Part shown: positions 621 through 50,300 of the stretch, one piece after another
Position numbering within the stretch: the first letter of the stretch is position 1
Layout of the letters: each line of letters opens with the position of its first letter
Assembly: GCA_016748015.1 (NCBI GenBank)
Contig: JAAOMT010000703.1
Location: 186,001-250,000 of the forward strand
Origin: Geosiphon pyriformis uo1
Lineage: Eukaryota > Fungi > Glomeromycota
Length of the DNA: 64,000 nucleotides
Direction: 5' to 3'
The notes under the pieces: generated by a model
Seen by the model: the letters and a program-made list of their open reading frames with translations, nothing else
Database searches by the model: none
Told to the model about the DNA's origin: nothing
Program-made: the position numbers and the translations under genes

Positions 621-1446
621 TATTACTCATAGAAATATAGGGAATATATATTAGCATAGTTATTAACCAATTAGAAGTAGACATAGTAAAATGTGGAATT
701 CCAGAATTTCAGAAATTACAGGATTCCAAAATTCCAGGATTCCTCTCAAAGAAATTGCAGGATTCAAGGAATCCCAGGATTCCTGTTGTGAAGAATTGAG
801 GAATTAAGAAATCTCAATTATGTATATATAGCAGTAGGATTAGAAGTTAAAAAAGACAGACTTCTCAGTTTAGATTTTATCTAGACAACTTTTCAAACCA
901 CAAATAAATAACTGTTTGTTATCTTAAATCTGCTGCCACTATTAACACTTTATGTTAATAGTAATTGATACTTAACCACACTAGAACAATAGCTCTTGAT
1001 CACAGCTATTGATGGAATACTAACTTGTAAATCGCCTTGGCTTATTTTTTTTCTTTCTTTATTTTTTTTTTCTTTATTTTTTGCTTTGATTTTATTGTTG
1101 TTTACTAACTCTATTGAGAATTAACGCGCAGAGTACTGACGTCAGGATAAACGTGACTGGTAAAAAACCCAGAAATAAGGGTAGAACACTCGATTGAGGA
1201 TAGCTTACTAGGAGGAATACTGGCCATTAAGCTGAAAAAGAAATTGACAAAACTGCAGTTTTGGAAAGCTACAGATAAAACTATTATTATTGAATCTCTG
1301 TCTATTATACAAAGAACTCAACCAAACCCTTTGGATACAAACCCTTTAGACACAAACCTTCAGATCACTATCAACTATAACTAGATTTGAGCACCAAGTT
1401 ACAGGTTTGTTATTTAATCTAACACCAAAAATAGTCATCTGTAACA
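621..1446 (+). repeat. Element A 5' LTR
   Basis: TATTAC...GTAACA; direct repeat of 9917-10787; followed by TT and the PBS. Confidence 0.95.
667..830 (+). promoter_or_regulatory. Putative U3 promoter: CCAAT box, GGAATTCC/GGATTCC repeats, TATATATA box
   Basis: CCAAT at 667-671, repeat block at ~693-790, TATATATA at 823-830. CCAAT-like and TATA-like motifs recur at similar offsets in other A-family LTRs. Confidence 0.55.
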
Positions 1447-1447
1447 T

Positions 1448-3300
1448 TTGGTGCTCTCTGTAAGGTATAATCCTACAGAAAACCAGCACCAACAATTAAT
1501 CAACAGTCGCAGAATCAGAAAGTATAGGAGCAAACTATTTAGGATTTGCGAAATCCTTATTTCAATACTACTGTCAACATTTGGGATTAAATCACAAGCA
1601 CATATCAGTGGAATCAGCTTTCAATTTCTATGTTAACAAAAGAATTGCCCATCTGTTAGGAACACTAGTAAATATTGAATCGGCAAGAGAAGCCTTTTAC
1701 TGTGAATTAATTCAAAATACCAACCTGCCAACAAATCACAATTTTGCCTCCATCATCATGGAAATCAACAAAAAAATTGAACACCACATACAGCAAAAAT
1801 ACTCCATTACTTATGCAAGCAAAGGCAAAGAAAAACTGCAAACACCAGCAGTAATACCCAAAAGAATACAACCACCTACTTGGAAGAAAACAAAAGTTGA
1901 GTCCCCAACTAATCCATCATACCACTATACACCCAGAAGTGCCATTAATATTACATCTACTGGTGCGGCCACATCAAACACGATATCAGCATTTGGACAA
2001 TTTCCATTCCAAAGTAAACAAAAAAAAACAGAGTTATTAAAACCATACAGCGCATATTTTAAAGGATTTAACTTGCAATCATTAATGCCATCAGGACTCC
2101 GATCGTCACCACCTCTCCCAAATTTCAGAATTTCTGATTTATGGAAAGTAATGGAATCAGAAGAAGAGGAAGAAGAAGAAGCTGAAGATCAAGAATTCAT
2201 TTACCAGAACTTGATCACTAAAAACCCAGAAATTGAAACCCCGAATTTTCAAATCCAGCAAAACCTAAATCTAGAAAATCTGGAAATCAAAACTCTGAAT
2301 ATTCAGACACCACCAACTTAGGATAATTGAAATCCCGATTTAATAAATCAACAAAACTTACCTCCAGTATTCATCATCGATCAACCACTGATTAATCTCA
2401 TAGCCAAACTTATATAGCAGCCACTTCAACTACCATCCCAACAACTCATGCAACAACAACTGCTTTAACAGCCACCACAACAACCCAACTTATATCCAAT
2501 GGCCTATGCATCAATCACAAAACTTGACAATTTCATTGGCAAGAAGGACAACACTTAGGTATGACTGAATAACGTGGAAAAAGCCATTACAATCAATAGA
2601 TAAAATGATGCCCAAACAATACAAGCCATTTCCTACTTTTTCAAGAATACCACTGATTTGTGGTTTTAAAGCTTAATTAATAAACCACAAGACTTTAATG
2701 CCTTCAAAGTGGAATTTTAAGATACTTTAGCAACAATAACAGTATCAACCAGTTAGCCAATACATTCAGCACTATGAAGCAAGGAAAAACAGAAGCAGTC
2801 ACTACTTACTTGGGATGCTTTTATCAAAATCTGCACCAAATCCAAGCAATTGATGCCAACTATTTTACAGCACCACAAATTTTCAACCAATTTATCTGTG
2901 GTCTGTATAGCAGCATCTTGCAACATGTACGTTCATCACATCCAGGCACCCTTTAAGATGCAGTCACATGTGCCAGAGATTTCAAATCTGCTGAGTCCGA
3001 AGCCAATCATGCCCAAGCTGTTAATCTAGTAATGAATGGATTATCTGACTTGCATCCCAAACTAAAACAATTCAGTAATACAATCAATTAGAAAATAGAG
3101 GGATACTTAGTGGACAATTGTGCAATCTATCAACCACCCCAACAATGCAATAATTTAGGAAATGCAAATTGTTTCCCAAATCAATCACATCTATCATCTT
3201 TTACCAATCAGCCATGGCAGCCAGAAATGTGTGTTTGCCACAACTGTGATAAACAAGGTCACATTAGAGTCAACTGTCGATTTTATAGCAACAATCCATA
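1448..3300 (+). pseudogene. gag: A: gag (N-terminal extension, capsid-like domain, CCHC zinc knuckle)
   Basis: KQGKTEAVTTYL...QFICGL retrotransposon-gag motif; CHNCDKQGHIRVNC knuckle in ORF 3110..3301; interrupted by stops. Confidence 0.85.
1449..1465 (+). other. Primer-binding site TGGTGCTCTCTGTAAGG (family consensus TGGTGCTCYCTGTGAGG; resembles the complement of an elongator tRNA-Met 3' end)
   Basis: Begins with TGG 2 nt after the LTR. Homologues at 26504-26520(-), 34203-34219(-), 36468-36484, 47432-47448(-) and 60286-60302. The tRNA identity is an inference. Confidence 0.8.
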
Positions 3301-3784
3301 ATCGGGAAATCAATATCAAAACTCTGATCACAGATTTCAGACTCAGAATCATTACCCAAATCAAGACCAATATCAAACCACTTACCTGCCAATGACGCAG
3401 CAACCAATCTATCAACCACCAGTATATCAACCTCCAATTTATCAACTACAGCCACTGGTAATTTATCAGCTGCAGTCCCAAATAATTTATCAGCCCCAAC
3501 AACTAATTCAAACACCACTCCAAAACCCCATTCAAATGACATCAGGAAACCAAAGACCTAGAATCACTCAAAACTGGAGATCGGCGATAGTTGTTTATCA
3601 ACTGATTCCCAGCTCCTTTTACCAATCATCAGGCTTTCAACAGTAAAATGCAGATACTGGTTCCACCCAAAACCCGAATTCTTAGAACTATTTAAGTCTC
3701 CTGGTTACCTCAGAAGATGCCACCACCAACAACTCGGAATTCAACCCACCCCAAACAACACTCACCAACAATATTCCACCAACA

Positions 3785-4234
3785 ATGATCACTGAAAACA
3801 AATCTCTCGCAGCCATCTTTTTTTTTAAATTGGAAGAAACCATCAACCCATCTTTGTTCAATGGAACAGTACTTGAGAAGAAATCTATCACTGCAATGTA
3901 CACTGATACGAAAGTTGATGGTCACTTCATCAAACTGATTCTAGATAGTGGATCAGCTGGTAGTATTATCACAAGACAACTCATGGATCAATTAGGTCGC
4001 CGAGTTGATTGCACTGTCAGCACCAGGATTATTACAGCCAATGAAGTGACCAAAACACCCATTGGAAAGATTGATAATTTCTCCATAGAAGTCAATGGCA
4101 TCATAGTACCAATCAAAGTACTCATCATGAAAGCCACTCAATACCAAGCACTCATTGGGAACGATTGGCTGTCTAAAACCAACACGATACTAGATTGGAA
4201 CACCCAAGAGCTTCAGCTTAGCCAAAATAGTTGA
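3785..4234 (+). pseudogene. A: aspartic protease (retropepsin)
   Basis: LILDSGSAGS active site and ALIGNDWL motif. Confidence 0.92.
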
Positions 4235-4639
4235 CACACACGAGTACCAGCCATGTGTGGCCACTTCAAGCCCATTATCATGCCATCAACACCACTTATT
4301 AAATTCAAGAAAGAAAAAGCGAAATCCACTTAGGAAGCATACTAAGTCTTGTGGGCCAATGTCAACCACAACAAACTGCTGCCAATACTCATCTGGAACA
4401 ACAATGACAATGGAAAGGAGAAACAAAGAGAAAAACCTATCTGGGAAGCCACCATCGACACTTGGACTGACAACAACCAAAGTAAGATGCCACCAATTCT
4501 AGATTGGAAAAAAAAGAACAAGGAAAAAGAGAAAGGAAGAGAAGAAAACATACCTGAAGAAACCACCACTGCAGAAGAAATAACTAGTGGCTGGGAAAGA
4601 GAATACTCATGTGAACCAATAAAAGAGCCACCATATATA

Positions 4640-5280
4640 CCTCTTAAATGCAAGGACTATGGAAAGAAACTGTCCTTAATGGAAGCTTGGATAGTGCCAG
4701 ATGAAGATTACAGGACACGAACCCATTACTCTTGCAAGTCCTGCCATAGAAAACAATATGACTACCCAAAAAAACAAGACAAATAGGACAATGAACCATG
4801 TCTCACTTGCAGTAAACAATTACTTAATAAAAGAATATGAAACAACATTCCTAGTCAAAAAAAAATGTACAACACTTCGTGCCAATACATGATTCTTATC
4901 AATGACTGGGTGAGTCGTGATATGCCCATTACAGCAGTATGGCACCAAGCTATATCCTGCCTAGATGGCTATCCACATGACAAGGATGAGATCTGGCAAA
5001 TGGCCAATGCCAATATAGAAGGTGCTTCACCCAGTGAAATTCTGGAAATCAAAAATAACCCTCCAGAACCAACAGATATTGTTTTTGTTCTCAACCTGGA
5101 CACCTTTATCAACTTAGAAAACAGCCCAGAAGAATTCCATAAACACTATCAGAATTTAGCACCTACTCGAGAAAAACAAGAACAATGGTTGGAAGAAATA
5201 AACACTTAACTATGTGACCACTGTTTGATTCCATGTAACTTCCAATATTGTAATAAGTGTGATCTCATTTACAATCCGCC
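4640..5280 (+). pseudogene. A: Cys-rich putative zinc-binding region between protease and dUTPase
   Basis: Several CxxC pairs (CKSC, CLTC, CDHC, CNKC) in the same frame as PR and RT; homologous to B 22115-22720. Confidence 0.65.
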
Positions 5281-5548
5281 ACCACGCATGATCTACACGA
5301 TCCAAGAAGAAGAGGAACCAATCAGCAGCTGTGCATCAGAATTGGAATCAATTTTTAATCCCGATTCAAACTCTGACAATGATGACAATGAAAACACCAG
5401 TTTCAGCTCTGTCTAATATGGCGAAAACAATAACAATGATTCCAACTCAGATTTAAACTCCAATTCAAACTATGAACAATATATTGCACTTCCTGACTTC
5501 ACCAAGGAACAGAAACTTAAATGGTTTAGCAATAATAATGAAAGTATT

Positions 5549-5941
5549 ATGCCAGAACAAGCGCATGATACTGATGCCAGGTTTGATCTGAATTATCTAA
5601 GAAAAGATGTCATCAAATTGGAACCATATTCACACACCTGCATTGATTTGAAAATAGCACTGGAAATTCCAGTAACGACAATGGTTCAATTAGCATTTAA
5701 GAGTAGTCTAATGAAAAGAGAGATAAATATAAGAGGAGAAATAATTGACATGGGATATGTAGAAAATATCATCACCATGTTACAAAATAACTCAGAAAAA
5801 ACATATATTATAGAGCCAAACAAAAAGATAGCACAGGCAATATTCCTGCCTCTGATTAAAGTAGCTCAATTAGTATTAGTGGGAAACAGAGAAGAACTAG
5901 GGATAACAGCAAGAAGGATACAGGGATTCGGATCCACAGGT
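5549..5941 (+). pseudogene. dut: A: dUTPase domain within the polyprotein
   Basis: All five trimeric dUTPase motifs in order: (A)RFDL, KSSL, IIDMGYVENI, KIAQ, RRIQGFGSTG. Confidence 0.92.
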
Positions 5942-6499
5942 AGAATAGATGTACCAGTTAATATGGTGGAAGAAAAAATTATTGGCCAAGGAGAAATTAT
6001 CTCAACCAGTCAAACAATTTCCATTTCACCATATAACCAATACATGTTAGCAATAGAAAGAAGAGAGAAGAAGCAAGAACAGATTTTTGAAGCAGAAGCA
6101 ATCCTTTGTGAATTAGAAGAAATTGGACTTATCAATCTACACATACCAGCCAAGAGCCATAATCATATCAAAATTCCTATCTACAACAACACTGGAAATG
6201 TTGTAGAAATACCAAAAGAAACCACTCTTGGATATTTAACCACGGAAATTGAAGATCAAGCACCAAGCAGCATTCCAGATTTTTCACAGCTTTGTGGATA
6301 TGTGGACATTACATTACAAACTATCTATGGACAAAACAAATGTTATCTGTTACAGCCAGAACAATTAGAACAGATAAACATGGGAAATCTAAACCCACTT
6401 CAACAGATACAACTAAAGATATTACTCAATAATTTCAATGACATCTTTGCCAGTGAAAACAAATTTGGCAGAACTGATATTATTCAGCATCAAATTAAG

Positions 6500-7775
6500 A
6501 CTGGAGATGCAATGCCAATCAAACAGTGAGCATATAGAGTACCACCAGCCAGCCATGAAATCATTTGTCAAGAGATCAACTGAATGCTTGACAATGGGTT
6601 AATTCAATCATCAATGAGCCTATGGTTGTTACCAGTAGTACTTATTCATAAGAAGAATGGAAAAATCCAATTTTGTGTAGACTACAAAAAACTCAATGGT
6701 GTAATTTGTGGAGACAACTATCCAACTCCACAGATACAAGAACTATTCGATACTTTCAGTGAAAACAAATGGTTCTCAACATTAGACTTAGATAGTGGTT
6801 ACTGGCAAGTAGCCATGGATCCAGCCGACAAAGAAAAAATGTTGTTCACCACAAGAGAGGGAAACTTTGAGTTTGAAGTTATGCCATTCGGCTTAACCAA
6901 TACTCCAGCTATATTTCAATGGTTAATAGAAATTATGTACACCAGCTTATTATGGAAATCAGTAGTTGTATACTTGGATAACACCAATGTGTTCTCAAAA
7001 ACATTCAATGATCATCTACATTATTTTCAACAAGTGTTCGAAAAACTACAATGAACAGGATTAAAATTGAATACAACAAAGTGTTTTTTCAGCAAAACAG
7101 AACTAAAATTTTTGAGACACATAGTTAGCAAAGACAGCATAAAAACAGATCCAGAGAAAATAGAGATAGTAAAAAACTTTCCAATACCAACCAATATAAC
7201 CAAGCTGAAATCATTCTTGGAATTTGCAAGCTATTATAGATGCTTCATAAAGAACTTTTTAAAGATAGCACAACTATTCAATGATCTTCAAACCAAAAAT
7301 GCAAAGTATGAATGGACTGAAACCCAGCAAGAAGCATTTGACATCTTAAGAAGAAAGCTTATTCAAGCTCCAGTATTGATCTATCCAGATCATAGTAAAC
7401 CATTTATTATTACCACTGATGCATTAGGTCAAGCATTGAGAGCAGTACTATCTCAGGGAAGATTGGATGGAAGAGAACATCCAGTTGCCATATGCCAGCC
7501 GAGGTTTGACTCCAGCCGAAAAGAACTATGGAACACCAGAATTAGAATATCTAGCAATCTATTAGACAGTTATGAAATGGAAAGAATACTTGAGCCAAAA
7601 GTTTGAGATGTACACAGATCACAAAAGATTGACATCACTCCAAAAACAAGAATTTGGAAACAGAAGACAGTCAAGATAAAAAATGACACTTGTGCCATAT
7701 ATTTATACTATACATTATAAAAAGGGAAAAGACAATGGAAATGCTAACAGTTTGTTGTGAATAAGACAAATCTAA
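6500..7775 (+). pseudogene. A: reverse transcriptase and RNase H
   Basis: FCVDYKKLN, LDLDSGYWQ, MPFGLTN, YLD(N)T, TTDA and YTDH motifs. Ends at TAA 7773-7775. A 1-nt insertion lies near 7489. Confidence 0.94.
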
Positions 7776-7836
7776 GAACATTTCAACCCAAAAATATAAC
7801 AAAACCAAAACAATACTCACAAAAATATAACAAAAG

Positions 7837-9174
7837 ATGAACACACAAAAATATCAACAACTTCAACATTATATAGATACTCAACAGTTCAAGGAGAAAT
7901 TATCTCAACTGGAACAAAAGAGGATCAAACAACAATCCAAATATTTTATCACTCACCAAAATATACTCTATCGGAAAAATAGAAAAGATTCAGATCAACC
8001 AACCAGAGTAATTACAGAACCAGAAAAGGAGACAATACTGTTTAACATGTACTCAGATTCAACTACAGAATATTTTCATAAAGAAGCAACCATAGAAAGA
8101 ACCAGAAAGAGATACTATTGGCCATCAATGTATTCAAACATCATCCAATATGTGCAAAATTGTGATGCTTGTCAAAGAAGAGGAGGAACAAGACCCAGTG
8201 AACCATTAAGACCAATCAAAGTAGGACAATCATTTGACCATATTGGAATCAATTTAGTCAGACCATTGACAATTACCAGCAGAGGCAACAAATATATTGC
8301 AGTAGTCATGGACTATTTTACTAAATGGCCAGAAGCCAAAGCAATTCAAAGAGCGGATGCAGAATCCATTACCAAATTCATCTATCAAGATCTGATTTGT
8401 CAACATGGATGTCCAAAAGAACTATTATCAGACCAAGAAACCCATTTTGTGAATAGAACATTAGCAGAACTAAGCCAAAAATTCGAAATTAAGAGACCAC
8501 TATTATTATCATACCATTTACAAACCAATAGATTAGTTAAAAGATTTAATAGAACATTGTATGAAGCAATAGCAAAACTCAGCCAAGAAAACCAGGACGA
8601 ATGGGATTTGTTCATACCATTAGTATTATTTGCTTATCGGACAATGAAGCAAGACACCACACAAGCAACACTATTTGAATTGATATATGATAGAACAGCA
8701 ACATTACCAGTTAAGATAGAGGTTAACACATATTCAACTGAACCAATAACAGAAGAGAATTTTCAAGAAACATTGTTAAAAAGAACATATGACTTAATAG
8801 AAACATTGGAAAACAAACGAAGAAGAGCAGCTGATAATATACAAAAGTCACAAGAGAAACAGAAAGAAAGACATGATAATTAACTACCAGACAAACCAGT
8901 TGAATTCAAGATTGGAGACAAAGTACTCTTACATTGTACCAAAGCGGAAAAACAATGGAATGGAAAATTTGACCCCAAATGGGATGGATTATTTCACATA
9001 GAAAAAATTTTAGGGAATGGAGCTTACAAATTAAGACTGGATAACAAAATCTTAACCAAAGCAGCACATGAAGATCAACTAAAACTATACCACAACATTA
9101 TACTACCATCCACCAGTAATATTCCACAATTAGGAGTACAGAAGATACTAGTCCAATTAGAGGAGATTTCATGA
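7837..9174 (+). pseudogene. A: integrase as a separate ORF with its own ATG; GPY/F-type C-terminus
   Basis: RYYWP..CDACQ zinc-binding remnant; degenerate DDE core (MDYFTKWP, LLSDQ, HLQTN..RFNRTL); KIGDKVLL..KWDG.F..GAYKL. Confidence 0.93.
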
Positions 9175-9273
9175 GATCTGGAACTAATCATCATCATTGA
9201 CAACAACACATTAAATTAATCCATCAAAAGAATATATAAAGACATGGTAGATGCGACTAGAAATATCAGAAAA

Positions 9274-9903
9274 ATGGAAATTACAGACAATATTCATTTA
9301 CTAGCACAACAACTTTTTCAATTGATTTAATACTAAGAGATAGAAATTACAATTAATCAACAAACCATCTGATATCAAGACACTAAAAAGACATCACCAC
9401 ATAGAACACAGAAGAAAACAAAAAATACCATTGACAAAATCATTGTGAAAGTAAAATTAGCAATAAAAGGGTTGACAAAAGAGTCACTATACCAAGAGTT
9501 GACTAAAAAAACTTGGAATTGGTGGATACAACAATTTTCAAGAAACTATTGTTATTTTTACTTGGGACAACACGTGAATATCCAGAATCTATATACAGAT
9601 AAAACAAAGTGATTATTCGACACAAAAATACTACAACAATTAGAACATTTTGTAAGAAAAAACAACTTATCCACACAGGCTCGAGCCATATACCGAATAC
9701 ACACAGCATTTCAGAATTGACCAGAAATCTTACTCAACAAAGCAATGGATACAGTTACCAATAATCAATTAGGAAAGATCACCAATGCTTAATTTGAAAA
9801 ATTACAGACTCAAATAACACAAATAATTCTCAAAAATAAAATTCAGAAAATATTTCAAGAAGGGGAATTAACAGAGTTAGATTTTGACAGAGCTCAATAT
9901 TAA
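9274..9903 (+). pseudogene. A: additional 3' ORF (ORF3), ~210 aa, unknown function
   Basis: One frame MEITDNIH...ELDFDRAQY*. All 6 internal stops are TAA or TGA, explainable by C>T or G>A. Homologous frames occur in E, H and B. Confidence 0.75.
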
Positions 9904-9916: not shown

Positions 9917-10787
9917 TATTACTCATAAAAATATAGGGAATATATATTAGCATAGTTATTAATCAATCAAAAGTAGATATAGTAAAATGTGGAATTCCAG
10001 GATTCCTCTCAGGAATTGCAGGATTCCAGGAATTATAGGATTCTCACAAAAAATTGCAGAATTCTAGAATTCCAGGATTCCTCTCAAAGAAATTGCAGGA
10101 TTCCAGGAATCCCAAGATTCTTGTTGTGAAGAATTAAGGAATTGAGGAATCTTAATTATGTATATATAGCAATAAGATTAGAAGCTAAAAAGATGGGTCT
10201 CTCAGTTTAGATTTAATCTAGACAACTTTCCAAACCACAAATAAATAACTGTTTGTTATCTCAAACCCACTACCACTATTAACACTTCATGTTGATAGTA
10301 ATTGATACTTAACCACACTAGAACAATAGCTCTTGATCACGGCTATTGATGAAATACTAACTTGCAAATTGCCTTGGCTTATTTCTTTTTTTTCTTTATT
10401 TTCTTTTCTTTTCTTTATTTCTTGCTTTGATTTTATTGTTGTTTACTAACTCTATTGAGGATTAATGCGTGGAATACTGACGTCAGGATAAACATAACTG
10501 GTAAAAGACCTAGAAATAAAGGTAAAACACTTGATTGAAGATAGCTTACCAGGAGGAATACTAGCCATTAAACTGAGAAAGAAATTGACAAAACTGTGGT
10601 TTCAGAAAGCTACAGATAAAACTATTATCATTGAATCTCTGTCTATTATACAAAGAACTCAACCAAACCCTTCGGATACAAACTCTTCAAACACAAACCT
10701 TCAGATCACTATCAACTGCAACTAGATTTGAGCACCAAGTTACAGGTTTGTTATTTAATCTAACACCAAAAATAGTCACCTGTAACA
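9917..10787 (+). repeat. Element A 3' LTR
   Basis: Direct repeat of 621-1446, with extra U3 repeat units. Confidence 0.95.
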
Positions 10788-13700
10788 ATGGTATGATAAT
10801 AATAATAGTCTTTTAATTCCAAATCTTTGACTTAGTTTTGCTAATGTTTTATTTACAAAGTGAGTTCCTTGATCTAATAATAGTTTTTTTGAACATCTAT
10901 GTCAGCAGATTAAATCTTGATGAATAAATTTGGCAATGGATTTTGCATCTGCTCTTTGAATGGCTTTTGCTTTTGGCTATTTAGTGAGATAGTTCATGGC
11001 TATTGCAATATATCTGTTGTCTCTGCTAGTGATTGTTAGTGGTCTGACTAAGTTAATTTCAATGTAATTGAATAGTTGTCCCACTTTGATTGGTCATAAT
11101 AATTTATTGGGTTTTGTTTCTTTTTTTCTCTGACAAGTATCACAATTTTGAACATATTGGATGATATCTGGATATATTGATGGCCAATAGTATTTTTTTC
11201 TAATTTTTTCTATGGTTGTTTCTTTGTGAAAATGTTCTGTTGTTGGATCTAAGTGCATGTTGAATAATATTGTCTTTTTCTCTGAATCTGTAATTACTCT
11301 GATTGGTTGATCTGGATTTCTTTTGTTCTTCTGGTAAAGTATATTTTGATGGTTAATAAAATATTTTGATTGTTGTTTTATGTTATTTTGTTCTTTTTAA
11401 GATAATTTCTTCTTGAACAATTGGGTATTTATGTAATGTTGAAGTTGTTGGTATTTTTGTATTTTCATTTTTTTGTTATATTTTTGGGTTGAAATGTTCT
11501 TAGATTTGTCTCATTTATAACAAACCATCAATATTTCCATTTTTTTTTCTTTTTTTATAATGTACTGTATAATTAAATAGTAAAAACTTGATTTTCCATC
11601 TAATATAACAATTGTCTCCAAATTTTTGCTTTTGAATTAAAGTTAATCCTTTATAATCAGTATATACATCAAATTTTTAACTCAAGTATTCTTTCTATTT
11701 GATGACAGCCCAATAGATAGCTAAGTGTTCTAGTGCTGGAGTTCTATAGTTCTTTTTAACTGGATTTAAGCTTCTACTGGTGTAAGCTACTGGGTATTCT
11801 CATCCATCTGGCTTTTTTGAGATAGTACAGCTCCTAATATTTAACCAAATGCATCAATAGTAATGATGAATAGTTTGCTGTGGTCTGAATAGATTAATAC
11901 TGGGGCTTGAATAAGTTTTCTTTTCAGTGTGTTAAAGGCTTTTTGTTGGATTTCAGTTTATTTGTATTTGGTGTTTTTTGTTTGGAGTTAATGTAGTGGT
12001 TGGGCTATTTTGGAAAAGTTTTTGATAAATTGGCAGTAATATCCAGCAAATCCCAAAAATGTTCTTAATTTCATAAGATTATTTGGTACTGAAAAGTTCT
12101 TAACAATCTCAATCTTATTTAGATCCGTTTTAATACTGTCTTTGCTTACAACATGTCCCAAAAACTTGAGTTCAGTTTTTCCAAAAAAACACTTGGTTGC
12201 ATTTAATTTTAATCTGGCTCTTTTTAGTTTTTTAAATACTTGTTGAAGATAGTATAAATAATTATCGAATGTTTTGGAGAACACATTGGTATCATTCAGA
12301 TATACAATTACTAATTTTCATAACAGTCTGGTATAAATAATTTCCATAAGTCATTGAAATGTGGCCAGAGTATTTATTAAGCCAAATAGCATAACCTCAA
12401 ATTCAAAATTTTTTTCTCAAGTCATAAAAGCTGTTTTCTCTTTGTCTTCTGGTTTCATGGCTACTTGCCAGTAATTACTGTTTAAATCTAAAGTTAAAAA
12501 CCATTTCTTTCCTCCAAAAGCATCGAAAAGTTCTTGGATCTTTGAAGTTGAATAGCTATCCTCTTTTATTACTCTATTTAATTTTCAGTAATCCACACAA
12601 AAGCAAATTTTCTCATTTTTCTTCCAGACTAATATTACTGATGATAACCATAAACTTATTGATGACTGAATTAGCCCATTGTTAAGCATTTAATTAATTT
12701 TTTGACAAATAATTTCATGGCTGGCTAGTGGTATTTAATATGCTCTTTGTTTGATTGACATTGTATTTCCAGTCTTGATCTGATGCTAAATTGTGTCCAT
12801 TCTGCTGAATTCATTTTCACTGGCAAAGATATTATTGAAATTGTTGAGTAACATTTTAAGCTACATACATTATAGTAGATCTAGATTTCCCAAGTTCATC
12901 TGTTTCAATTGTTCTGGTTGGAGCAAATAATATTCTTCTTGTCTGTATATTGTTTGAGATGTGATGTTCATGTATTTACACAGTTGTGAAAAATCTGGAA
13001 TGGTGTTTAGGAGTTGGTTTTCAATTTCAGTGGATAAATATCTAATAGTAGTTCCTTCTGGTATCTTGATGATATTTTTTATGTTGTTGTAAATAGAAAT
13101 TTTAATGTGACTATGGTTCTTGGCTGGTATATGTAGATTGACTAATCTAATTTCTCCTGATTCACAAAGTGTGACTTCTGCCTCAAAAATCTGAACCTGA
13201 TTTTTCACTTTTCTCTTTATAATTACCATGTACCAGTTATATGGTGGAATAGAAATTGATTGACAGGTGAAGATAATTTCTCTCTTGTCAACAATTTTTT
13301 TTTCTGCCATATTAACTGATATATTTATTCTACCTGTAAATCCAAAACTTTGTATCTCTTTAGCTATAATTCCTAATTTTTTCCTGTTTTCTACTGATAC
13401 TAATTGAGTTATTTTAACCAGAAGCAGAAATATTGTCTGTGTTATCTTTTTGTTTGGCTCTATGATATAGGCTTTTTCTGAATCATTTTGTAGCATTGTA
13501 ATGATATTTTTTACATATTCTGCATCAATTATTCCTCCTTTGATGTTAATTTTCTTTTTTGCTAAACTACTTCTAAATGCTAATTGAACTATTGTTGTTG
13601 CTGAAATTTTTAATGCTACTTTGAGATCAATGCATGTGCACGAATGTAGTTCCAATTTGATGGTGTCCTTCCCTAGATATCTCAGATCAAAACTTGGCAT

Positions 13701-19705: not shown

Positions 19706-19721
19706 GGTGGGTTGGTGATTT

Positions 19722-21020
19722 TTATGTGTGTCTCATTCTTGACAAACAGTCAGCATTAGCATTTTTGGTACCTTCTTTGTATTTGATAATATAATCGTAT
19801 AGTGCTAATGTTTGTGACCATCTGGCGTATTTTCTTTTTAGCGCTTTCTTGTTATTTAACCAGACCAGACCTCTATGATCTGTCGTAATCTCAAAGGGTT
19901 AGTACCGTAAATATGTGTCAAAGTGAACACAACTCCAGACTACTGCTAAGCATTTAAGTTCATGTGCTGCGTAGTTTTGTTCTGCCGTACTGAGACTTCT
20001 GCTGGCATAAGCGATTACACGTTCTCTTCCATTATCATCTTTTTGTAACAGAATGGCTCCAAGTCCAGTTCCAAAGTCATCTGTGGCCAAAATGAATTTC
20101 TTGTTGAAATTCGAATAGATCATTATTGGTGATTCAATGAGCTTTTGTCTAAGGTACTCAAAAGCTTTTTGTTGTGCTTCAGTCCATTCAAACTTCACAT
20201 TTTTAGATAGTAGGTAATTAAGGGGTTTGGCGATGTTTGAAAAGTTTTCTACAAAGTGGCGGTAGTAAGATGCGAGTCCTAAAAAGCTTCTAACTTCTGA
20301 AACGTTTCGAGATACTGGAAAATTTTTCACTTTGTCTATTTTTGATGGATCTGGTTTTATTCCATCTTTTCTAACTACGTGTCCTAAAAATGCTAGCTCA
20401 TTTTTTCCAAAGAAACATTTTTCTAGATTTAGTTTAAGTCCAGCGTGTCTCAATCTCTCTAAAACTTGTTGTAAATGTTGGAGATGATCCGTGAATTTTG
20501 ACGAGAAAACATTTGTATCATCCAAGTAGACAACAATGGATTGCCACAGGATTCCGGAGTAAATTACGTCCATTAGTCTTTGGAATGTTGCAGGAGCATT
20601 TGTTAATCCAAATGACATTACATTGAACTCATAATTGCCATTTTGTGTTGTGAATGCTGTTTTATGCCTGTCCTTTGGGTCCATTTCCACTTGCCAGTAC
20701 TCACTGGTCAAGTCTAGTGTAGAAAACCATTTTGCTCCTTCAAAAACGTCGAAGATTTCGTCAATTAATGGTATTGGGTATGAGTTTTTGGTTGTTTTGC
20801 TGTTTTGTTTGTGATAGTCGACGCAAAATCTAATTTTTCCGTTCTTTTTCCTTACTAAAACAACTGGTGAGGACCATGGGCTCATTGATGGTTGTATTAT
20901 TCCTTTTTCCAACATGTTTTGGACTTCTTCTCTGATAAAATTATGCTCCATTGGTGGGACACGGTAAGCGCGTTGTTTTTCAGATCTGGCATCTCCAGTG
21001 GGGATTTGGTGTTGAACCAA
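19722..21020 (-). pseudogene. B: RT and RNase H
   Basis: ORF 19899..21020 with YLDD, FGLTNAPATFQ, LATD and AYASR; ends NADCLSRMRHT* at 19722-19724. Confidence 0.95.
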
Positions 21021-21945: not shown

Positions 21946-21974
21946 ATTATTCTTAGGTGCCCGTTGTCGAAGTA

Positions 21975-22720: not shown

Positions 22721-22929
22721 TTGGTCTGCGTCACTGGTGGTTTCTTCGTGAACTTACCTGGTTCCATTCGGATTTTTCTTCGCTGGTCCACGTTGGTACG
22801 GCTGGTAGTCCTGTTCTTTGGTCATCAGCCCAAAAGAGTTGATAGGTTTCGATGGCTGGTAGTGCTGGATTTTCCTCAAATTTGAAGGTAGGTCTTTGGT
22901 TGGCACTAGGTTTTTGGAAGTGGCCACAG

Positions 22930-25876: not shown

Positions 25877-25878
25877 AA

Positions 25879-27389: not shown

Positions 27390-30300
27390 GTAAATATTAC
27401 ATTACAAACTATTTACAGATGAGAAAAATGTTATTTGTTCTAACCAAAACAATTATAACAAATGAACTTAGGAAACTTAAACCCACTTTAACATATACAA
27501 CTCAAGATACTACTCAACAATTTTATTGATATCTTTGTTAGCAAAAATAAATTTGACAAAACTGACATTATTCAACACCAAATCAAGACAAAAAATACAA
27601 TACTAATTAAACAAAGAGCATACAGAATACCACTAGCAAGCCATAAGATCATCCAACAAAAAATCAACAGAATATTAGACAATAAATTAATTCAACTATC
27701 TATAAGTCTATAATTATTATCAATGGTATTAGTCCAGAAAAAAAATGAGAAAATACACTTTTGTGTAGATTACAAAAAGCTTAACAGTATTACTTATAAA
27801 GACAATTATTCAACTTCATGGATTTAAGAATTATTCAATATATTTGAAAGAAAGAAATAATTTTCAACATTGGATTTAAACAGTGGTTATTGACAAATAG
27901 TTATGAAACTGAAGAATAAGAAAAAGACTATATTCACAACTAAAAAAGAGAATTTTGAATTTAATGTTATGCCATTTAGCTTAATTAATGTCCCAGCCAT
28001 CTTTTAATGACTAATAGAAATTGTCTATACTAAATTATTATGAAAATCAGTAGTAATCTACTTGGATAACACCAATATGTTTTCCAAAACATTTGATAAC
28101 CATCTGTATTATCTTTAGCAAGTGTTCAAGAGATTAAGAAAAACCAGATTGAAATTAAATACAATTAAGTGCTTTTTTGGTAAAACAAAATTAAAATTTT
28201 TGGAATATGTTGTAAGCAAAGACAGCATTAAAATAGATCTAGATAAAATCAAAATATTTAAAAACTTTTTAGTACCAACCAATCTGACAAAACTATGAAC
28301 ATTTTTGGAATTTGCTAAATACTACTATTGCTTTATTCAGAACTTTTCTAAGCTGGCTTAACTATTTTATTGGCTCTAAGCAAAGAATGTAAAATATAAA
28401 TAGACTGAAACTCAACAAAAAGCTTTTAACATTTTAAGAAGAAAGCTTATTTAAACATTAGTATTAATCTATCCAGATTACAGCAAGTCATTTATTATTA
28501 CTACTAATGTATTTAGTCAAGTATTGGGAGCAGTATTGTCTTAAAAAAGAGCAGATAAACAAGAATACCTAATAATATATGCCAGTAGAAGTTTAAGTTC
28601 AGCTGAAAAAAACTATGGAACCTCAGCATGAGAACACTTAACTATTTATTAGGCTGTTATCAAATGAAAAAAATATTTGAGTCAAAAATTTGATGTATAT
28701 ATTGATTACAAAGAATTGACATTAATTCAAAAACAAAAATTCGAAGATGATAACCATGCAAGATAGAAAATAAAACTATCATTATTTAATTATACAGTAT
28801 ATTATAAAAAAAAAAATGAAAATGCTGATAGTTTGTCATAAATTAAAAAAATCTGAAAACATTTTCAAACCAAAAATATTAACAGCTTCAATATTTTATT
28901 AGTATTCAACAGTTTAAGAAGAAATTATCTTAAAAAAAACAAAACAACATAAAACAACAAGCCAAATATTTTATTACTTACCAAAATATATTATACTAAA
29001 AAAACAGAAAATATTCAGATCAGCCATTTAGAGTAATAATAGAGTTAAAAAAAGAAACAATACTATTCAACATGTATTCAGATCTAACAGCAGGACATTT
29101 TCATGAAAAAATAATCATAGAAAAAACCTGAAAAAAATATTATTGGCCATCTATATATTCAAATATTATTTAATATGTTTAAAATTGTAATGCTTATCAA
29201 AGAAAAGAAAAAACAAGACTTAGTAAACCACTAAGACCAATTAAAGTAGAACAACTATTTGATCAAATTGGAATTGACTTAGTTAAACCATTAACAATAA
29301 CTAACAAAGACAATTATTATATAGCAGTAGCTATAAATTATCTTACAAAATAGTCAGAAGTAAAAACAATTCAAAGAGCAGATGCAAAATCCATAGCCAA
29401 ATTTGTTCACCAAAATTTGATTTGTCATATGAATATTTAAAAAAATTATTATCAGATCAAAAAACTCATTTTGTAAACAAAACATTAACAAAATTAAGTC
29501 AAAGATTTGGAATCAAAAAACCACTATTATTATTATACTATTTATAAACAAATGGCTTAGTCAAAAGATTCAACAAAATATTGTGTGAAACAATAACCAA
29601 AATCAGCCAAAAAAACCAGAACAAATATGATTTGTTTATATTATTAATATTATTTGCTTATCAAACAATAAAGCAAAATACTACACAAGCAATACTATTT
29701 AAACTTGTTTATGATAGAATAACAATATTACTAATTGAAATAAACATCAACACATATTTAACAAAATCAATAACAGAAGCCAAATTCCAAAAAACATTGT
29801 TGAAAAAAACATATGAGTTAATAGAAACTTTAAAAAACAAAAAGTAAAGAACAGTTAATAATATTCAGAAGTTACAAGAAAAACAAAAAAAATAACATAA
29901 TAACCAATTACTAGAAACCAATTGAATTCAGAATTGGAGACAAAGTACTTTTACATCATACCAAAGCAAAAAAACAATAAAGTGAAAAATTTGACTTTAA
30001 ATAGGATGGATCATTTCATATTGAAGAAATTCTAAGAAATAGAGCTTATAAACTAAGATGAAGCAACAAAATTTTAGCTAAAACAGTACATAAAGATTGA
30101 CTGAAACCATATTACAATATAGTATTATCATCTACCAGTAATATTTCACAACTGGAAGTACAACAAATACTAGTTCAACCAAATAAAATTTCATAAGATC
30201 TAGAACTAATCATAATTATCAATACAAACATGTTAAATTGATTTACAAAAATAGTATATAAAAACACAATAAATATAACAACAGCAACAATAAAAAATAG

Positions 30301-41104: not shown

Positions 41105-41572
41105 TTAATAAAAAGTATAAGTTTCAATTGTAACATCATCCTCTTCAAAAAGATTGAGCTTCAGCAAAATCTGGCTATTTATAATGTAATCTATTGGAAG
41201 AGTTTTATCTAACTCAAAGCTAACTAGTTTGTTGAAATCTTTTGTGGATAAGATATATAACACTTGAAGCAAAATGAGTTTTGTATCCAAGAGACTAAAT
41301 CTTTGTATTAGAGTTTTGGCTCTTTTAGTAATAGTTAAAACTCTTAGGACATCTAACCATATAATGCCCAAAATTTCTGTCTGTATCTTTGAAGTTGTTT
41401 TCTTTATGAGTTTTATATCCTCTATAATTTCATCAAGATGATCATAGAGTTCTAATTGTCTTTCATATGACAAGTTTTTGTCTATGGATAAAATTTCTTG
41501 AAGTGTTTTTCCAATTGTGTTAGAAAGTGAGAGTATAGCTGCCATTATACTTTCCAACAGATATTTATCCAT
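41105..41572 (-). CDS. C: 3' additional ORF (ORF3 equivalent), runs into the 3' LTR
   Basis: Open 155-aa frame between integrase and the PPT; helical-looking; only weak resemblance to A-family ORF3. Confidence 0.55.
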   Translation of the reverse strand: MDKYLLESIMAAILSLSNTIGKTLQEILSIDKNLSYERQLELYDHLDEIIEDIKLIKKTTSKIQTEILGIIWLDVLRVLTITKRAKTLIQRFSLLDTKLILLQVLYILSTKDFNKLVSFELDKTLPIDYIINSQILLKLNLFEEDDVTIETYTFY

Positions 41573-41809
41573 TTTGCTACCAATTTTTTCTTTTCTGGTA
41601 GTAGTTTTTTTTGGTCTAATAACAGTATGTGTTCCACTGTTATCAGTTATAGTGGTCTGTTTTCCAATAGTTAAAGTAGCATTTGGATAGTTTTTGATCT
41701 AATACTCATGAAAAGTATAAAAGGCATTTTGAATGTTTTAATCCAGAAAATAATTGTTTATGTTAATTGAAGATACCTCTGTTTTAGGAATGGTGTATTT
41801 ATTTATACT

Positions 41810-43115
41810 TGACTTTTGCTGATCATTTGAGTCAGTATTATTACAACAGGCAGCCAATCAGGGCATTTATGATATTTCTTGAGTCGTGTATCATGAACAA
41901 AACGATTATTAAAGATTGTTCCAGATTGATCTTGAAGAATATAAGAACTATTGTTCAAAACTTTATTGACTATAAAGAGTTCTTTCTACTGGCTAGAAAA
42001 TTTATTATTATAAATATTGTCTCTGTCAGAACAGTATTTTAGTACCAAGTCACCAACACTTAAAGAAAGTGTTTTATAGGTTTCTTTTTCTTAAGCTTTT
42101 CTTGGAACTGTTTTATCTTTTCAAAAGCAATTATTCGTGCTTCTACCAAGAAGTCAAGAATAGTACCAAGTTTTCTTTGCAAAATGTCTTTGTAATTTCT
42201 TATTGTGATCTCTTCAAAAGGTATTGTTTCAATGTCAGTTTCTATTGGTAGTGTTGTCATGTGTTCATAGAGCAGATAAAAAGATTCATAATTTGTTATG
42301 TCATGATTCACAGGGTTATAAGCAAACAAAGCTGAAGGCAGTAATTTGTCCCATAAGTTTGTTTCTTTACTGGTTTTGGCTAGGGTTTCACATAGTGTTC
42401 TATTAAAACATTCCATTAGGCCATTTGTTTGGGGGTGATAAGGAGAAAAAAGTTTATGATGTATTTTCATTTTTCTACAAAGTTCTTCAACCAGTGTACT
42501 AAGAAAAGCTTTTCTTCTATCAAATAAAAGTTCTTTGGGGCAGTCATGACAGCAAATGATATTTTCATAAATAAAATTGGCTATTGAGACTGCTGTTTGG
42601 TCTGGGGTGGCTCTTGCTTCTACCTACTTTGTAAGATAGTCAGTAGCTGTGATAATATATCTGTTGTCATCAGAAGTAATTGTTAAAGATCCAACAACAT
42701 CTATACCAATTCTGTCAAATGGTTGACCAACAGAGATTGGATGGATATCTTCTTTGTGATTGGGTTTGCCTCTTTTTTGGCAGATGTTACAGGTTTTGAT
42801 GTATTTAGCAATGTTTTTTCTCAAGGTAGGCCAATAATAATGAGCTAAAGTTTTCTGAATTGTTTTTGTTTTTTCAAAGTGTCTAGTTAATGAGTCAGTG
42901 TGCATATTGTATATTACAATTTCTTTTTTTTCAAATCTGATGACTCTTTGGAGGTGGTCAGGATCTTTTCTGTTTCTTTTGTATAATTGGTTCTGGCAGA
43001 TCAAATAGAAATTTGATTGTTTGCACAAATATTTTCTTTGCTGTTGAGTGTATTCTGGTGGGTATTGTTCTTTATCCAAAAATTCTATTAAAACAAAGTA
43101 GTTGTCCAAGTTCAT
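41810..43115 (-). pseudogene. C: integrase with its own ATG
   Basis: MH..HF..YYWP..CNICQ, IGIDVVG, TDYLTK and YHPQTNGLMECFNRTL. Confidence 0.92.
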
Positions 43116-43179
43116 TATTGTGTTTGTTTATAAAAAAGTTACTAATAATTAAGTTGGTTTGGTTTGAGAGATTGTACTA

Positions 43180-44460
43180 TTACTGGATGATAAGTCAAAA
43201 GAGAGCATCAATGTTTTGATGATTTGCTCTTTTGCAGTGTTGAATATCATAGTCAAATTCATCCAAGTGGAATATCCAGTGAGTTATTTGTTTGTGTTCC
43301 AGCTTCTTTTTCTTGTGCAGCCAAACCAAGGCTTAATGATCTGTTACCACTAAGAATTTTGCACCAAGAAAATATTGATCCCAGTAGCTAGTAGTCCAAA
43401 CTACTGCTAAATATTCTTGTTCAGTAATTGAATAGTTTTTTTCTGCTGGTGTAAGGAATCTACTGGCATATGCTATGGCATGTTCTCTGCCATTTTCATC
43501 TTTCTGTAAAAAGACAACACCAAGTCCATAATCAAATGCATCAGTGTGAAGGATAAAAGATTGGTTCAGATCAGGTTGTTTGAGAATTGGTTCAGTAACA
43601 AGTTTTTCCTTCAGAAATTCAAAAGCTTTTTGTTAATAAGTGCCCCAGTGATAATTGACATTTTTCCTGAGTAATTAATTAAGAGAAAAGGCAATTTTGG
43701 AAAAATTCTTAATAAATTTGCAATAGTAAGAGGCCAAACCAAGGAAAAAGTGTAGTTCAGGAACATTCATTGGTTGTCTAATGTTCTGGACTTTTTCAAC
43801 TTTAGCTGGATCAGAGAAGATTCTATCTTTTGTAATAAGATGACCAAGAAACTGGGTGGATTGATGTCCAAAAAAAGATTTGATTGGGTTGATTTTGAGG
43901 CCAGCATTTCTGAGCAGATCAAAAACCTTTTGTAAATGTTCAAAGTGTTCATTCTAGGTTTTTAAGTAGACCATTATGTCGTCTAAGTAGACCAGAACAA
44001 AGTTTTCTTTTACTGATTTAAATACTTTGTCCATCAGACATTAAAAAGTGAGAGAAGCATTGGTAAGACCAAAATACATGACTGTAAATTCATAAGTGCC
44101 ATATTTGGTGATAAAGACAGTTTTTTTTCTGCTTTTTGGATCCATTTCTACTTGCCAGAATCAAGCAGTTAAGTCAATGATTGAGAAGAAAGCAGCACCA
44201 TTGAATTTATCTAACATTGCATCAATTTTGGGGAGTGGGTACATGTCTCTTATAGTGATGGCATTTAATTGGCAGTAATCAACACAGAAGCATAGGGTTT
44301 TATCTTTCTTGGATATCACTACAACTGGAAAAGCCCATTTACTCTTGGTTTCTTGTATGAATCCAAGATCTTTTATCTGGTTTATTTCTTTTTTAATAAA
44401 CTTATCATTATGTTGATTGGATTAATAAGACTTTAAATGAATAGGGTGAGTTTCTTTGGT
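43180..44460 (-). pseudogene. C: RT and RNase H
   Basis: CVDY, FGLTNA, YLDDI (~43975-43989), LHTDA, AYAS and VTDH; ends with TAA TAG. Confidence 0.9.
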
Positions 44461-47340: not shown

Positions 47341-50300
47341 TTTTTGTTGTGTGCTTTAAAGTGTTCTTCTGATTGTTGTGGCAGGTATGAATAATCACCC
47401 ATACAATAGGAAACAAAGTGAATTTTGACAACTTCACAGAGAGCACCATTTTTATATTATGAGTTAGAGTAATAAACTAACAGATAGCAAGAGAGAACAG
47501 GATTGTAGAGTGATGGAAATAATCAAAGGGCTTTCAATTTTAATAAGAGAATTGAATAAGTATGGATTTAATGTGTGAGATCAGTCTCATAAAATATCTC
47601 AGTCGCTATACTTTTCAAAAATAACCAGGAGATCTGAAGATAGAGAGATAATCTGTACTGTCAACAAATGATCACATTTGGTATAATTTTATGTCTCACA
47701 TCAGTGCTCTTAGAATTCAATATCAAGTATCAAATGTGCTTTTTAGTTATGTTTTATTCAATAATCTTCAAATACTGTACTTATATGTTTTAGGAAAAGG
47801 GTAAGGAATAACCAACAAGTAATCTTTTATCTTTAAGATATTCAGATACTTAAAAGTAGAAAAAGAGAAATTAGCAATAAGAAAAAAATTGAGATAAAGT
47901 TGTTATTTTATTTATTTTATTTCTTTTAATTCTTACATACTTTTCTATAGCTAAGAGATTATTGCTTATATAGCTGTCAAAAGTAGTCAATGATCAAGTC
48001 AATGACTAGATCAATGATTAGGTCAATAATTAGGTTAATAATCACTTTCTAAAAATAAAGTGGCTAATTTATGTAACATCAGTAGCTAATACATGTAATA
48101 ATTAATAAAAAGTATAAGTTTCAACCATAACACTATAAAATAACTCAAAAAAAGGATATATAATTGAACCAAATAAAAAAATAGCATAGACAATATTTTT
48201 GTTTTTGATTAAAATAGCTTAGTTAGTATTAGCAAAAATAAAAAAAAAGTTAGAAATTACAGCAAAAGGAATAAAAAAATTCAGATCAACAAATAGAATA
48301 AATATACCAATTAATATAACAGAAAAAGAAATAATTAATAAGAAAAAAATTATCTCTATTTATTAATCAATTTTTATTCTATCATATAATCAATATATAG
48401 TAGTTATAGAAAGAAAAATAAAAAACCAACCCCAAATTTTTAAAGCAGAAACAAACTTTTGTAAATTAAAAAAGATTGGTATTACTAATTTTTACATACT
48501 AGTCAAAAACAACAAACACATTAAAATTTCAATATACAACACAATTAGAAATTCTATAAAAATACCAAGTAGAACTATCATCAAATACTTAAGCATTAAA
48601 GTTGAAAATCAAGCATTCACCATTATTTCAGACTTTCTATAGCTTTGCAAATATGTAGACATTATATCACAAATTATATATGGACAAAAAAAGTGTTATT
48701 TGTTGTAACCAAAACAATTGGAACAAATAAACTTGGAGAATTTAAATACACTTTAATAAATACAACTCAAAATACTACTCAACAACTTTACTAATATCTT
48801 TGTCAGTAAAAATAAATTTGGCAGAACTGATATTATCTAATACCAAATCAAAACTGAAAATACAATATTAATTAAACAAAGAACATACAGAATACCACCT
48901 ATTAGCCATAAGATTATTTGACAGAAAATTAATAGAATGTTAAACAATAAGTTAATTCAATTATTAATAAGTTTATAATCATTACCAATAGTATTAGTCT
49001 ATAAAAAGAATAGAAAAATCTGCTTTTGTGTAGATTATAGAAAATTCAATAGTGTTATTCATAAAAACAACTATCCAATTCCATAAATTCAGAAGTTATT
49101 AACACTTTTAGAGAAAAAAATAGTTCTTAATATTAGACTTAGATAGTGATTATTAGCAAATAGCCATAAATTTAGCCAACAAAAAAAAGACAGCATTTAC
49201 CATCAGAAAAAAAAATTTCAAATTCAATGTTATATTATTCAGTTTAACCAATACTCTAGCTATTTTTCAATGAACTTATGAAAATTGTATATACTAAATT
49301 ACTATAGAAATCAGTAGTAGTCTACTTAAACAATACCAATATGTTCTTTAAAACATTTGATAAACATCTTTTCTATTTTTAACAAGTGTTTGAAAGATTA
49401 AAAAAAGCTAGATTGAAATTGAATACAACTAAATACTTCTTTAGCAAAACTAGACTCAAGTTTTTAAAACATGTCATAAGCAAAGATGACATTAAAACAG
49501 ATTCAAACAAAATTAAAATAGTTAAAAACTTTTCAGTACCAACAAACTTAATAGAATTAAGAACATTCTTAGAATTTGCTAAATACTATTGCCACTTTAT
49601 CTAAAACTTTTTTAAACTGGCTTAACTATTTTACCATTTCTAAGCAAAGAATATGAAATATGTATAAACTGAAATCTAACAAGAAGCTTCCAACATCTTG
49701 AGAAAAAAGCTTATTTAAGTCTTAGTACTAATTTATTCAGATTACAACAAACTATTTATTATTATTATTAATACATTTAGTCAAATATTGGGAGCTATAT
49801 TGTTACAAAAAAGAACAGATAAACAAGAATATCTAGTGGTATATACCAGCTGTAGTTTAAGTCCAGCCAAAAAAAACTATAGAATTCTAGCATTAGAATA
49901 CTTAGTTATCTATTGGACTATTATTAAATAAAAAAAATATTTAAGTCAAAAATTTGATGTGTACACTAATTACAAAGAATTAACATTAATTCAGAAGCAA
50001 AAATTTGGAGATAATCACTATGTAAAATAAAAAATAGAACTATTATTATTTGATTATATCATACATTATAAAAAAGAAAAAAAAATAGTAATGTTAATAA
50101 ATCTAAAAACATTTCAACTCAAAAATATAACAAAAAATAAACACACAAAAATATTAACAACTTCAACATTATATTAATACTCAGCTGTTCAAGGAAAAAT
50201 TATCTTAAAAAAAATAAAACAACAAGCAAAATATTTTATTATTTATTAAGATATATTATAACAAAAAAACAAAAAATACCTAGATTAGCCATTCAAAGTA

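Follow-up and report, generated by a model that had tools for sequence, protein, structure and literature searches.

A Gypsy-derived retrotransposon lineage with a separate integrase open reading frame

Introduction

Integrase normally reaches the particle as part of Gag-Pol; foamy-virus Pol is expressed apart from Gag. In Ty3/Gypsy retrotransposons, according to the part of PMC2774666 drawn on here, Pol is a single polyprotein with four domains. Expression of a downstream ORF beyond a stop codon is described elsewhere, again in the portions of the sources used: SART1 shows UAAUG coupling and LINE-1 has a 63-nt spacer, termination-reinitiation having been proposed (PMC5972666), while in the fungal viruses CHV1 and HvV190S, and in caliciviruses, a stop-restart takes place at overlapping or nearby stop and start codons, in another frame (PMC10275272).

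No description of a Gypsy lineage with a separate integrase ORF was found in the full-text literature, a scope outside which lie Repbase, GyDB and the subscription journals (cf. 10.1101/2021.03.30.436303, PMC11075540, 10.64898/2026.05.21.726589 and PMC12789967, each represented by part of its text). Two papers on Rhizophagus transposons mention Gypsy elements without an ORF layout in the parts consulted, and their supplements and libraries may hold such elements; an earlier description of the lineage may exist.

The window analysed here is a stretch of 64,000 nt from Geosiphon pyriformis uo1 (GCA_016748015.1, contig JAAOMT010000703.1, positions 186,001-250,000, forward strand). Judged from sequence, the integrase split is genuine, holds across the lineage and is consistent with active elements: in these Ty3/Gypsy-type elements the Gag-Pol frame ends past RNase H, and integrase starts at its own conserved ATG.

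Results

Retrotransposons in the window

The window is low in GC, with CpG at 0.27 of expectation, and holds nested, decayed LTR retrotransposons of three families (Table 1). Pfam domains occur in the Gypsy order: Retrotrans_gag, Ty3_capsid, aspartic protease, dUTPase, RVT_1, RT_RNaseH, Integrase_H2C2 and rve. The gag domains were called on a B-family copy (51913-52689). Each of elements A, B and C is bounded by two LTRs and flanked by a 4-bp target duplication, and all three were therefore inserted by an integrase. No tRNA genes were found in the window.

Table 1. Positions of retrotransposon features within the window.
Feature	Position	Strand	Remarks
Element A 5' LTR	621..1446	+	LTR pair 91.5% identical over aligned columns
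Element A target duplication	617-620 and 10788-10791		ATGG
Element A primer-binding site	1449..1466	+	
Element A decayed gag-pol	1500..7772	+	Pfam; 5' limit approximate
Element A gag-pol domains	protease 3905-4174, dUTPase 5540-5941, RT from ~6644, RNase H to 7772		Pfam
Element A Pol stop	7773..7775	+	TAA; majority letters in the family
Element A spacer	7776..7836	+	61 nt, G-poor, without ATG, unstructured
Element A integrase ORF	7837..9174	+	own ATG
Element A decayed ORF3	9244..9903	+	ends at polypurine tract
Element A 3' LTR	9917..10787	+	polypurine tract just 5'
Copy D (family A) stop, spacer, ATG	11466..11502	-	TAA 11500-11502, 31-nt spacer, ATG at 11468
Element B LTRs	17536-18402 and 25874-26392		target duplication ACAG
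Element B Pol stop	19722..19724	-	TAA
Copy E stop	28854..28856	+	TGA; ATG lost
Element C LTRs	47457-48132 and 40480-41135		target duplication ATAG
Element C third open frame	41105..41698	-	ORF3 position
Element C stop, spacer, ATG	43113..43182	-	TAA-TAG (TAA 43180-43182), 64-nt spacer, ATG at 43115
Copy H stop	50104..50106	+	TAA; ATG decayed to ATA

Families A and B have a dUTPase between protease and RT (5540-5941, 12873-13754 and 21093-21960), with a Cys-rich insert before it; Pfam found no dUTPase in family C in the window. Most of the decay changes are G-to-A and C-to-T, and they affect TGG and CAA codons outside CpG as well (6400-7775; copies D, E and H); the pattern in the family-A copies resembles repeat-induced mutation. 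By eye, the LTR end region at 1389-1407 is complementary to 1440-1457, which takes in the primer-binding site and the LTR terminus, and could fold over them; retroviral U5-leader stems fold over this kind of region. Element B (17536-26392), whose LTRs are 96-98% alike, sits within the leader of D, and a second B fragment (51320-53809) interrupts H. Element B spans assembly gaps with duplicated flanks and may be partly misassembled. Many further family-A LTRs and fragments, in both orientations and with some inverted arrangements, lie at 30859-32991, 54550-55900 and 59300-64000.

Pol stops and integrase start codons

An earlier note on this DNA had placed Pol stops in A, B, C, D, E and H, and all six are present (Table 1). 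The integrase ATGs that it described, in A, C and D, are present as well; B and E have lost theirs, and H has ATA. It had also called the spacers G-poor, and rightly so: those of A, C and D have about 3% G and essentially no structure (MFE 0 to -0.2 kcal/mol). Its placing of the stop four codons past the LSR motif fits A, B and C and does not extend to the lineage, where Pol tail lengths vary; copy H is without the LSR codons. The integrase frame of element A is closed 6 nt 5' of its ATG, and its only internal stop (8881-8883) is interpreted as decay. In element B a deletion of about 450 nt has removed the integrase ATG together with the zinc domain, and core homology to A resumes some 40 nt past the stop, at around 8292 of A.

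Four family-A copies were compared over 458 RT-RNase H codons. The codon at 7773 is the only one that is a stop in all four. Six other codons are stops in three of the four; these are Trp or Arg positions, and include the R of LSR. Because the window copies are decayed and share these other stops by decay, a stop shared within the window alone is weak evidence.

In the DNA contigs of run X1 (1,176 on 7735-7850), other letters all stay below 6% at 7773-7775 and 7837-7839, in contrast to the decay stop at 7677-7679, where G accounts for 87% of the depth at 7679; this run may be the window's own sample, and speaks for the family in the Geosiphon pyriformis genome only. At the LSR codon, used as a control in the same run, contigs dropped off as loose ends, without a substitution row. 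Five contigs diverge exactly past the Pol stop. The family is very abundant in run X1 (11,553 contigs on 900 nt), and next to nothing of it is present in runs X2 and X3.

Related loci and the geometry of the junction

From the DNA scan, 80 of 449 confirmed metagenome loci were kept, originating from 17 of the 64 parts of the collection. RNase H lies upstream of the integrase in 47 of the 80; the remainder, partly examined, contains many short loci and some with a long Pol tail. A continuous RNase H-integrase frame was found in none of the 47, and in 60 of 61 testable loci an ATG stands at the predicted integrase start, as judged with a profile from which the first six alignment columns had been taken out. 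Some split loci look intact, namely L022 (1621 + 424 residues), L008 and L051 (1338 + 416 + 139). The earlier claim that integrase is an ORF of its own is borne out. The viral contig collection gave three distant loci, one of which (L081) is a fused element.

The 41 mapped junctions are not independent, forming 36, 24 or 12 clusters at 90, 70 and 60% identity. Stop and start overlap or abut in 18 (gaps of -20 to +2 nt, two of them TAATG), are separated by 3-100 nt in 17, and lie further apart in six; L009 and L029, both with longer gaps, shrink to 62 and 61 nt if a premature Pol stop is allowed for. Spacers thus range from -20 to more than 700 nt across the lineage. At 18 of the 41 there are at least 400 open codons on either side of the stop. 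The overlaps are in the +1 frame in 15 of 17 cases, and the non-overlapping junctions are divided 8/8/8 among the frames. Six loci stand outside the 41, with a misassigned ATG (L068, L076) or no ATG call (L048, L066, L070, L078); read by hand, all six are split, with gaps of 39-521 nt. Most relatives have a Pol tail of 1-24 residues, and nine loci have one of 69-587. Where it reaches 216-344 residues (L008, L012, L022, L031, L051, L053), the ATG is still 62-93 nt from the new stop.

Seven loci have an in-frame stop 5' of RT (L014:2882, L016:870, L032:902, L052:3290, L064:1585, L065:3358, L070:929). Its context is TGA-CTA in six and TAG-CAA-TTA in one, which are readthrough-type contexts, and several of these stops apparently lie past protease, not past Gag. 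Neither context was found at eight in-frame Pol stops examined.

Related proteins and gene models

Among integrase relatives of 191-609 residues, the best 120 show 40-54% identity. Their starts fall within three residues of the same position in 102 and further in in 18, with none extended, and 105 begin with MD, MN or ME. At 610-2000 residues the best relative is a Cetraspora gene model (41%) without RNase H, and the others reach at most 38%. None of the 40 proteins listed for RT at 54% identity or above carries integrase. Named relatives come from Rhizophagus, Entrophospora, Cetraspora and Gigaspora, and Rhizophagus irregularis has members. In the stand-alone integrases H70, C107, C110, D137, D197 and E233 are invariant (41/41); the first His column was not located.

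Among the relatives, Pol and integrase are truly continuous in P0329 and in P0364, a member of the same cluster. Pol is also joined to integrase in the public gene models P0318, P0324, P0334, P0365, P0366 and P0124, the last being from Cetraspora. The Rhizophagus clarus models P0318, P0324 and P0334 drop the NADALSR motif and have two different junctions in one cluster, in which the unspliced P0367 ends shortly past NADALSR. Joined models of this kind apparently arise from predicted introns that differ within one family.

Phylogeny and class membership

Split elements, window copies, gene models and P0329 form one clade in the integrase tree (SH-aLRT 99) and again in the RT-RNase H tree (SH-aLRT 97), in both nested among fused Gypsy-type relatives; the trees are quick searches without bootstrap, those of RT using 51 and 28 of 148 rows, without named reference clades or other LTR superfamilies. 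A clade of the 18 split rows that excludes P0329 has the higher likelihood and is not rejected (p-AU 0.73), and the sequences are compatible with a single origin of the split, with P0329 as its fused sister.

The elements have the features of Ty3/Gypsy (Metaviridae): LTRs with target duplication, primer-binding site, polypurine tract, capsid, the order PR-RT-RH-IN, the zinc and DDE residues of integrase, and the RT phylogeny. The canonical organisation, with integrase inside the Pol polyprotein, was not found in any of the 47 loci, and the lineage is therefore classed as a Gypsy-derived variant and not as a canonical member. The chromodomain (PF00385) that would mark a chromovirus is not listed for any of the 120 closest integrases. 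An env-bearing errantivirus was considered and rejected, ORF3 typically having 130-160 residues, a predicted all-helical fold and no Pfam family at E <0.008. A Ginger/GIN DNA transposon, with an integrase without RT and with inverted repeats, was likewise rejected, given RNase H upstream in 47 of 80 loci and the LTRs of the window elements.

Conserved elements before the integrase ATG

A hairpin of about 40 nt, with a large A-rich 5' bulge, lies just 5' of the integrase ATG in 23 loci (e.g. L008:4464-4502) and in L084 (1236-1274, minus strand). It belongs to the subclade with a Cys/His-rich Pol tail. In 18 aligned copies, 98.6% of cells are paired and 6 of 12 pairs have two-sided changes; the covariation score was reached by 0 of 500 shuffles and the pair count by 10 of 500, where the structure derives from the same related sequences and the shuffle control is lenient. 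Rfam gave three matches on 15 loci, all below the gathering score and none on the hairpin. The hairpin model matches nothing in the window (best E 0.17) or in the viral contig collection.

When the motif alone was sought in 596 Gb of contigs binned as prokaryotic, with four stem pairs left free, two matches emerged, L084 and L085. In L084 the free stem pairs do pair, and the same integrase lies downstream. L085 receives no score from the hairpin model and was set aside as a chance match. The L084 contig is filed in a bacterial MAG yet is a piece of the retrotransposon lineage, and is probably misbinned.

A second conserved element, of 27 nt, is present in another subclade about 60-75 nt before the integrase ATG (L016:2767, L039:398, L079:237). 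It could be a promoter, a protein site or an RNA structure.

The third ORF

The tri-cistronic layout put forward in the earlier note agrees with the relatives, in which the third small ORF is conserved. The ORF3 family, mostly of 130-160 residues, was found in 25 loci, mostly between integrase and LTR and often ending at the polypurine tract, and its profile finds 617 clusters at 50% identity. The decayed ORF3 of element A is 27% identical to that of L001 (pairwise E 4e-14). A six-frame scan of the window with the ORF3 profile missed it; with the composition correction off it scores 19.1 bits, against 15.5 for the best of 400 shuffles. The third frame of element C is weakly linked to the family, with a pairwise E of 0.007 and a profile score within the shuffles.

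AlphaFold generates a confident, all-helical model of ORF3 (pLDDT 94.6). Pfam, PDB sequences, Foldseek PDB and the viral library gave no match at E <=0.001. In the ESM Atlas the matches were phage hypotheticals, with weak leads to a translation repressor and coat protein at 0.93 and only 134-139 shared features, and were not taken up. Our guess is that ORF3 acts in the particle or in RNA handling.

Discussion

Is the split genuine?

The window copies share decay stops at other codons, and one could suppose that decay in dead copies produced the Pol stop, or that the integrases are Ginger-like DNA transposases beside retroelements. The intact split loci L008, L022 and L051 refute this, and there are 18 loci with open frames of at least 400 residues either side of the stop. 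The closest listed RT relatives are without integrase, the RT and integrase trees agree on the clade, and the window elements have LTRs and target duplications. We consider such a reading extremely improbable. A normal Pol-integrase fusion, restored by splicing, frameshifting or stop readthrough, is also very unlikely, if a little less so. It draws on the fused models P0318, P0324, P0334 and P0124 and the truly continuous P0329 and P0364, on the +1 frame of the overlaps, which makes a frameshift formally possible in those few families, on copy D, whose integrase frame is open across the stop, and on L001, L006 and L042, where the stop is the sole in-frame block. However, the R. clarus models lose NADALSR at inconsistent junctions and the unspliced P0367 ends near that motif; L010, the sister of L006, has a second stop; the frames of the non-overlapping junctions are evenly divided, and the integrase frame is usually closed before its ATG, which is itself conserved. 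Only 2 of 32 short-tail loci could accommodate an intron that spares both the RNase H motif and the integrase N-terminus; the long-tail loci (9/9) all could, at the cost of a conserved tail. Looser donors are scattered over 32 of 41 loci, and nine have none. The earlier note had named a sense codon at the stop with a continuous frame, or an intron restoring a fused Pol, as fatal to its claim; for the lineage there is no sense-codon majority at the stop and no continuous frame among the 47 loci, and the intron is confined as just described.

How integrase might be expressed

A high-copy lineage that integrates without the Gag-Pol link must express and package its integrase in another way. Among the three routes offered by the earlier note, termination-reinitiation appears the best on the sequence evidence, and we give it an even chance. 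Ribosomes that terminate at the Pol stop would resume close by on the same genomic RNA and so translate integrase. At overlapping ORFs the restart would be at an AUG 1-20 nt behind the stop, and at junctions with a spacer (31-64 nt in the window) the ribosome would scan across a short stretch that is unstructured and poor in AUGs, in the manner proposed for LINE-1 ORF2. The outcome would be less integrase than Gag and RT, with the start Met taking the place of a protease cut. By analogy, integrase made on genomic RNA would likely remain attached to it and so enter the particle, a scheme modelled on the behaviour of LINE-1, hepadnaviruses and foamy viruses.

Reinitiation is favoured by the precedents of SART1, LINE-1, CHV1 and HvV190S, by the tight stop-start geometry, by the scarcity of ATGs in spacers of 20-200 nt (5 observed, 15.9 expected from composition), by the ATG remaining near the stop where Pol is extended, and by ORF3 often following close behind the integrase stop (gaps of -8, -4, 3, 32, 34, 40 and 41 nt). 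It is also favoured by the 18 overlap loci, where ATGs 5' of the integrase start show no depletion: their density is 2.8 per 100 nt, compared with 2.5 for the body of Pol, and 12 of the 18 loci have an ATG within 60 nt, in some cases at -7 to -15. A scanned subgenomic RNA would have to pass these ATGs. This support is weakened in that the 41 junctions represent only 24 families at 70% identity. Against it stand the long, ATG-rich spacers of L016 (365 nt with 7 ATGs), L068 (521 nt with 8), L065 (727 nt with 12) and L070 (156 nt with 2), and the presence in several loci (16/41) of another ATG nearer the stop. The TURBS core TGGGA (18S-complementary UGGGA) lies upstream of only 2 of 41 stops. Where an in-frame stop precedes RT, the end of Pol would be reached by few ribosomes, and in four loci the ORF3-family gene is 466-1358 nt or further past the integrase stop. 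The integrase ATG has a scanning-type context: -3 is A in 42 of 64 cases and +4 is G in 54 of 64, where 386 internal ATGs give 32% for each. This too counts against reinitiation; one calicivirus-type restart reportedly has no need of such a context, according to part of PMC10275272. In the portion of a review drawn on here, reinitiation past a long ORF is called highly improbable for most non-LTR elements (PMC3894237).

Ordinary scanning of a subgenomic or spliced mRNA of its own, with integrase packaged through RNA or a partner protein, is distinctly less probable than an even chance, though it is the stronger of the two remaining routes. The start context, the same four long spacers and the long gaps before ORF3 in some loci agree with it, and the 27-nt element could serve as a promoter or mark a processing site. 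A further point in favour is that foamy viruses express Pol from a dedicated spliced RNA. The undepleted upstream ATGs, in several overlap loci 7-15 nt from the start, argue against it; L002, L013, L042 and L057 lack an AG over the 60 nt that precede the ATG, and no conserved donor was found past the primer-binding site. The candidate donor AG/GTATAA of the earlier note falls away, being nucleotides 15-18 of the primer-binding site, with the GT absent in family B, L008, L029 and L051. Internal initiation independent of upstream translation, by way of the A-rich, unstructured spacer or of the hairpin that one subclade has, seems to us less probable still. The paired structure 0-37 nt before the ATG in 23 loci and L084, and the unstructured spacers of A, C, D, L001, L051 and L074, speak for it. 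But the hairpin is absent from the window and most subclades, and from L051, which lies inside the hairpin subclade and has three intact ORFs; for an IRES it would be very small, and it may instead serve to enhance restart or to bind integrase. Moreover, 18 of 41 loci lack any spacer, so the CAA-rich leader proposed earlier is not general. Different subclades may use different routes.

Returning to reinitiation, we tentatively suggest a wider picture, itself rather unlikely as a whole: that a polycistronic, virus-like RNA replaces protease processing in the whole lineage, with Gag-Pol, integrase and ORF3 in a stop-restart chain, free integrase loaded through its RNA, the hairpin as a restart or loading signal in one subclade, and ORF3 as a new helical accessory protein.

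The lineage offers a natural test of eukaryotic ribosome restart past a long ORF and of the loading of a free enzyme into a retroelement particle. The split explains the stand-alone 'integrase core domain' genes and the intron-joined Pol models in mycorrhizal fungal annotations, and standard LTR classifiers may misjudge intact split elements as broken. The ORF3 family and the hairpin are further unannotated parts.

Comparison with known systems

LINE-1 and SART1 resemble the present elements in having a downstream ORF past a stop, reached by UAAUG overlap or a spacer. Unlike them, they are non-LTR elements with no capsid to load, and their split lies between ORF1 and ORF2, not inside Pol. The restart of CHV1, HvV190S and caliciviruses differs in that here the TURBS core is nearly absent (2/41), the geometry varies from -20 to more than 100 nt, and the hairpin is past the stop and not before it.

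Tat, Gmr1 and foamy viruses share with this lineage a displacement of Pol-type enzymes from the usual polyprotein, and the parts of PMC10508981 and PMC2774666 drawn on here do not describe for any of them an integrase split from RT. The separate ORF of Tat holds an extra RNase H, the integrase of Gmr1 is only reordered, and in foamy viruses all of Pol is separated from Gag. The dUTPase-bearing fungal chromoviruses (PMC2774666, in the same part) are similar to families A and B in the dUTPase between protease and RT, and differ from this lineage in their chromodomain, PF00385 being absent among the 120 closest integrases.

In overall plan the elements resemble Ty3/Gypsy itself, with LTRs, primer-binding site, polypurine tract, a Ty3-type capsid and the order protease-RT-RNase H-integrase; the difference is that here integrase is a separate Met-initiated ORF, followed by the conserved small ORF3.
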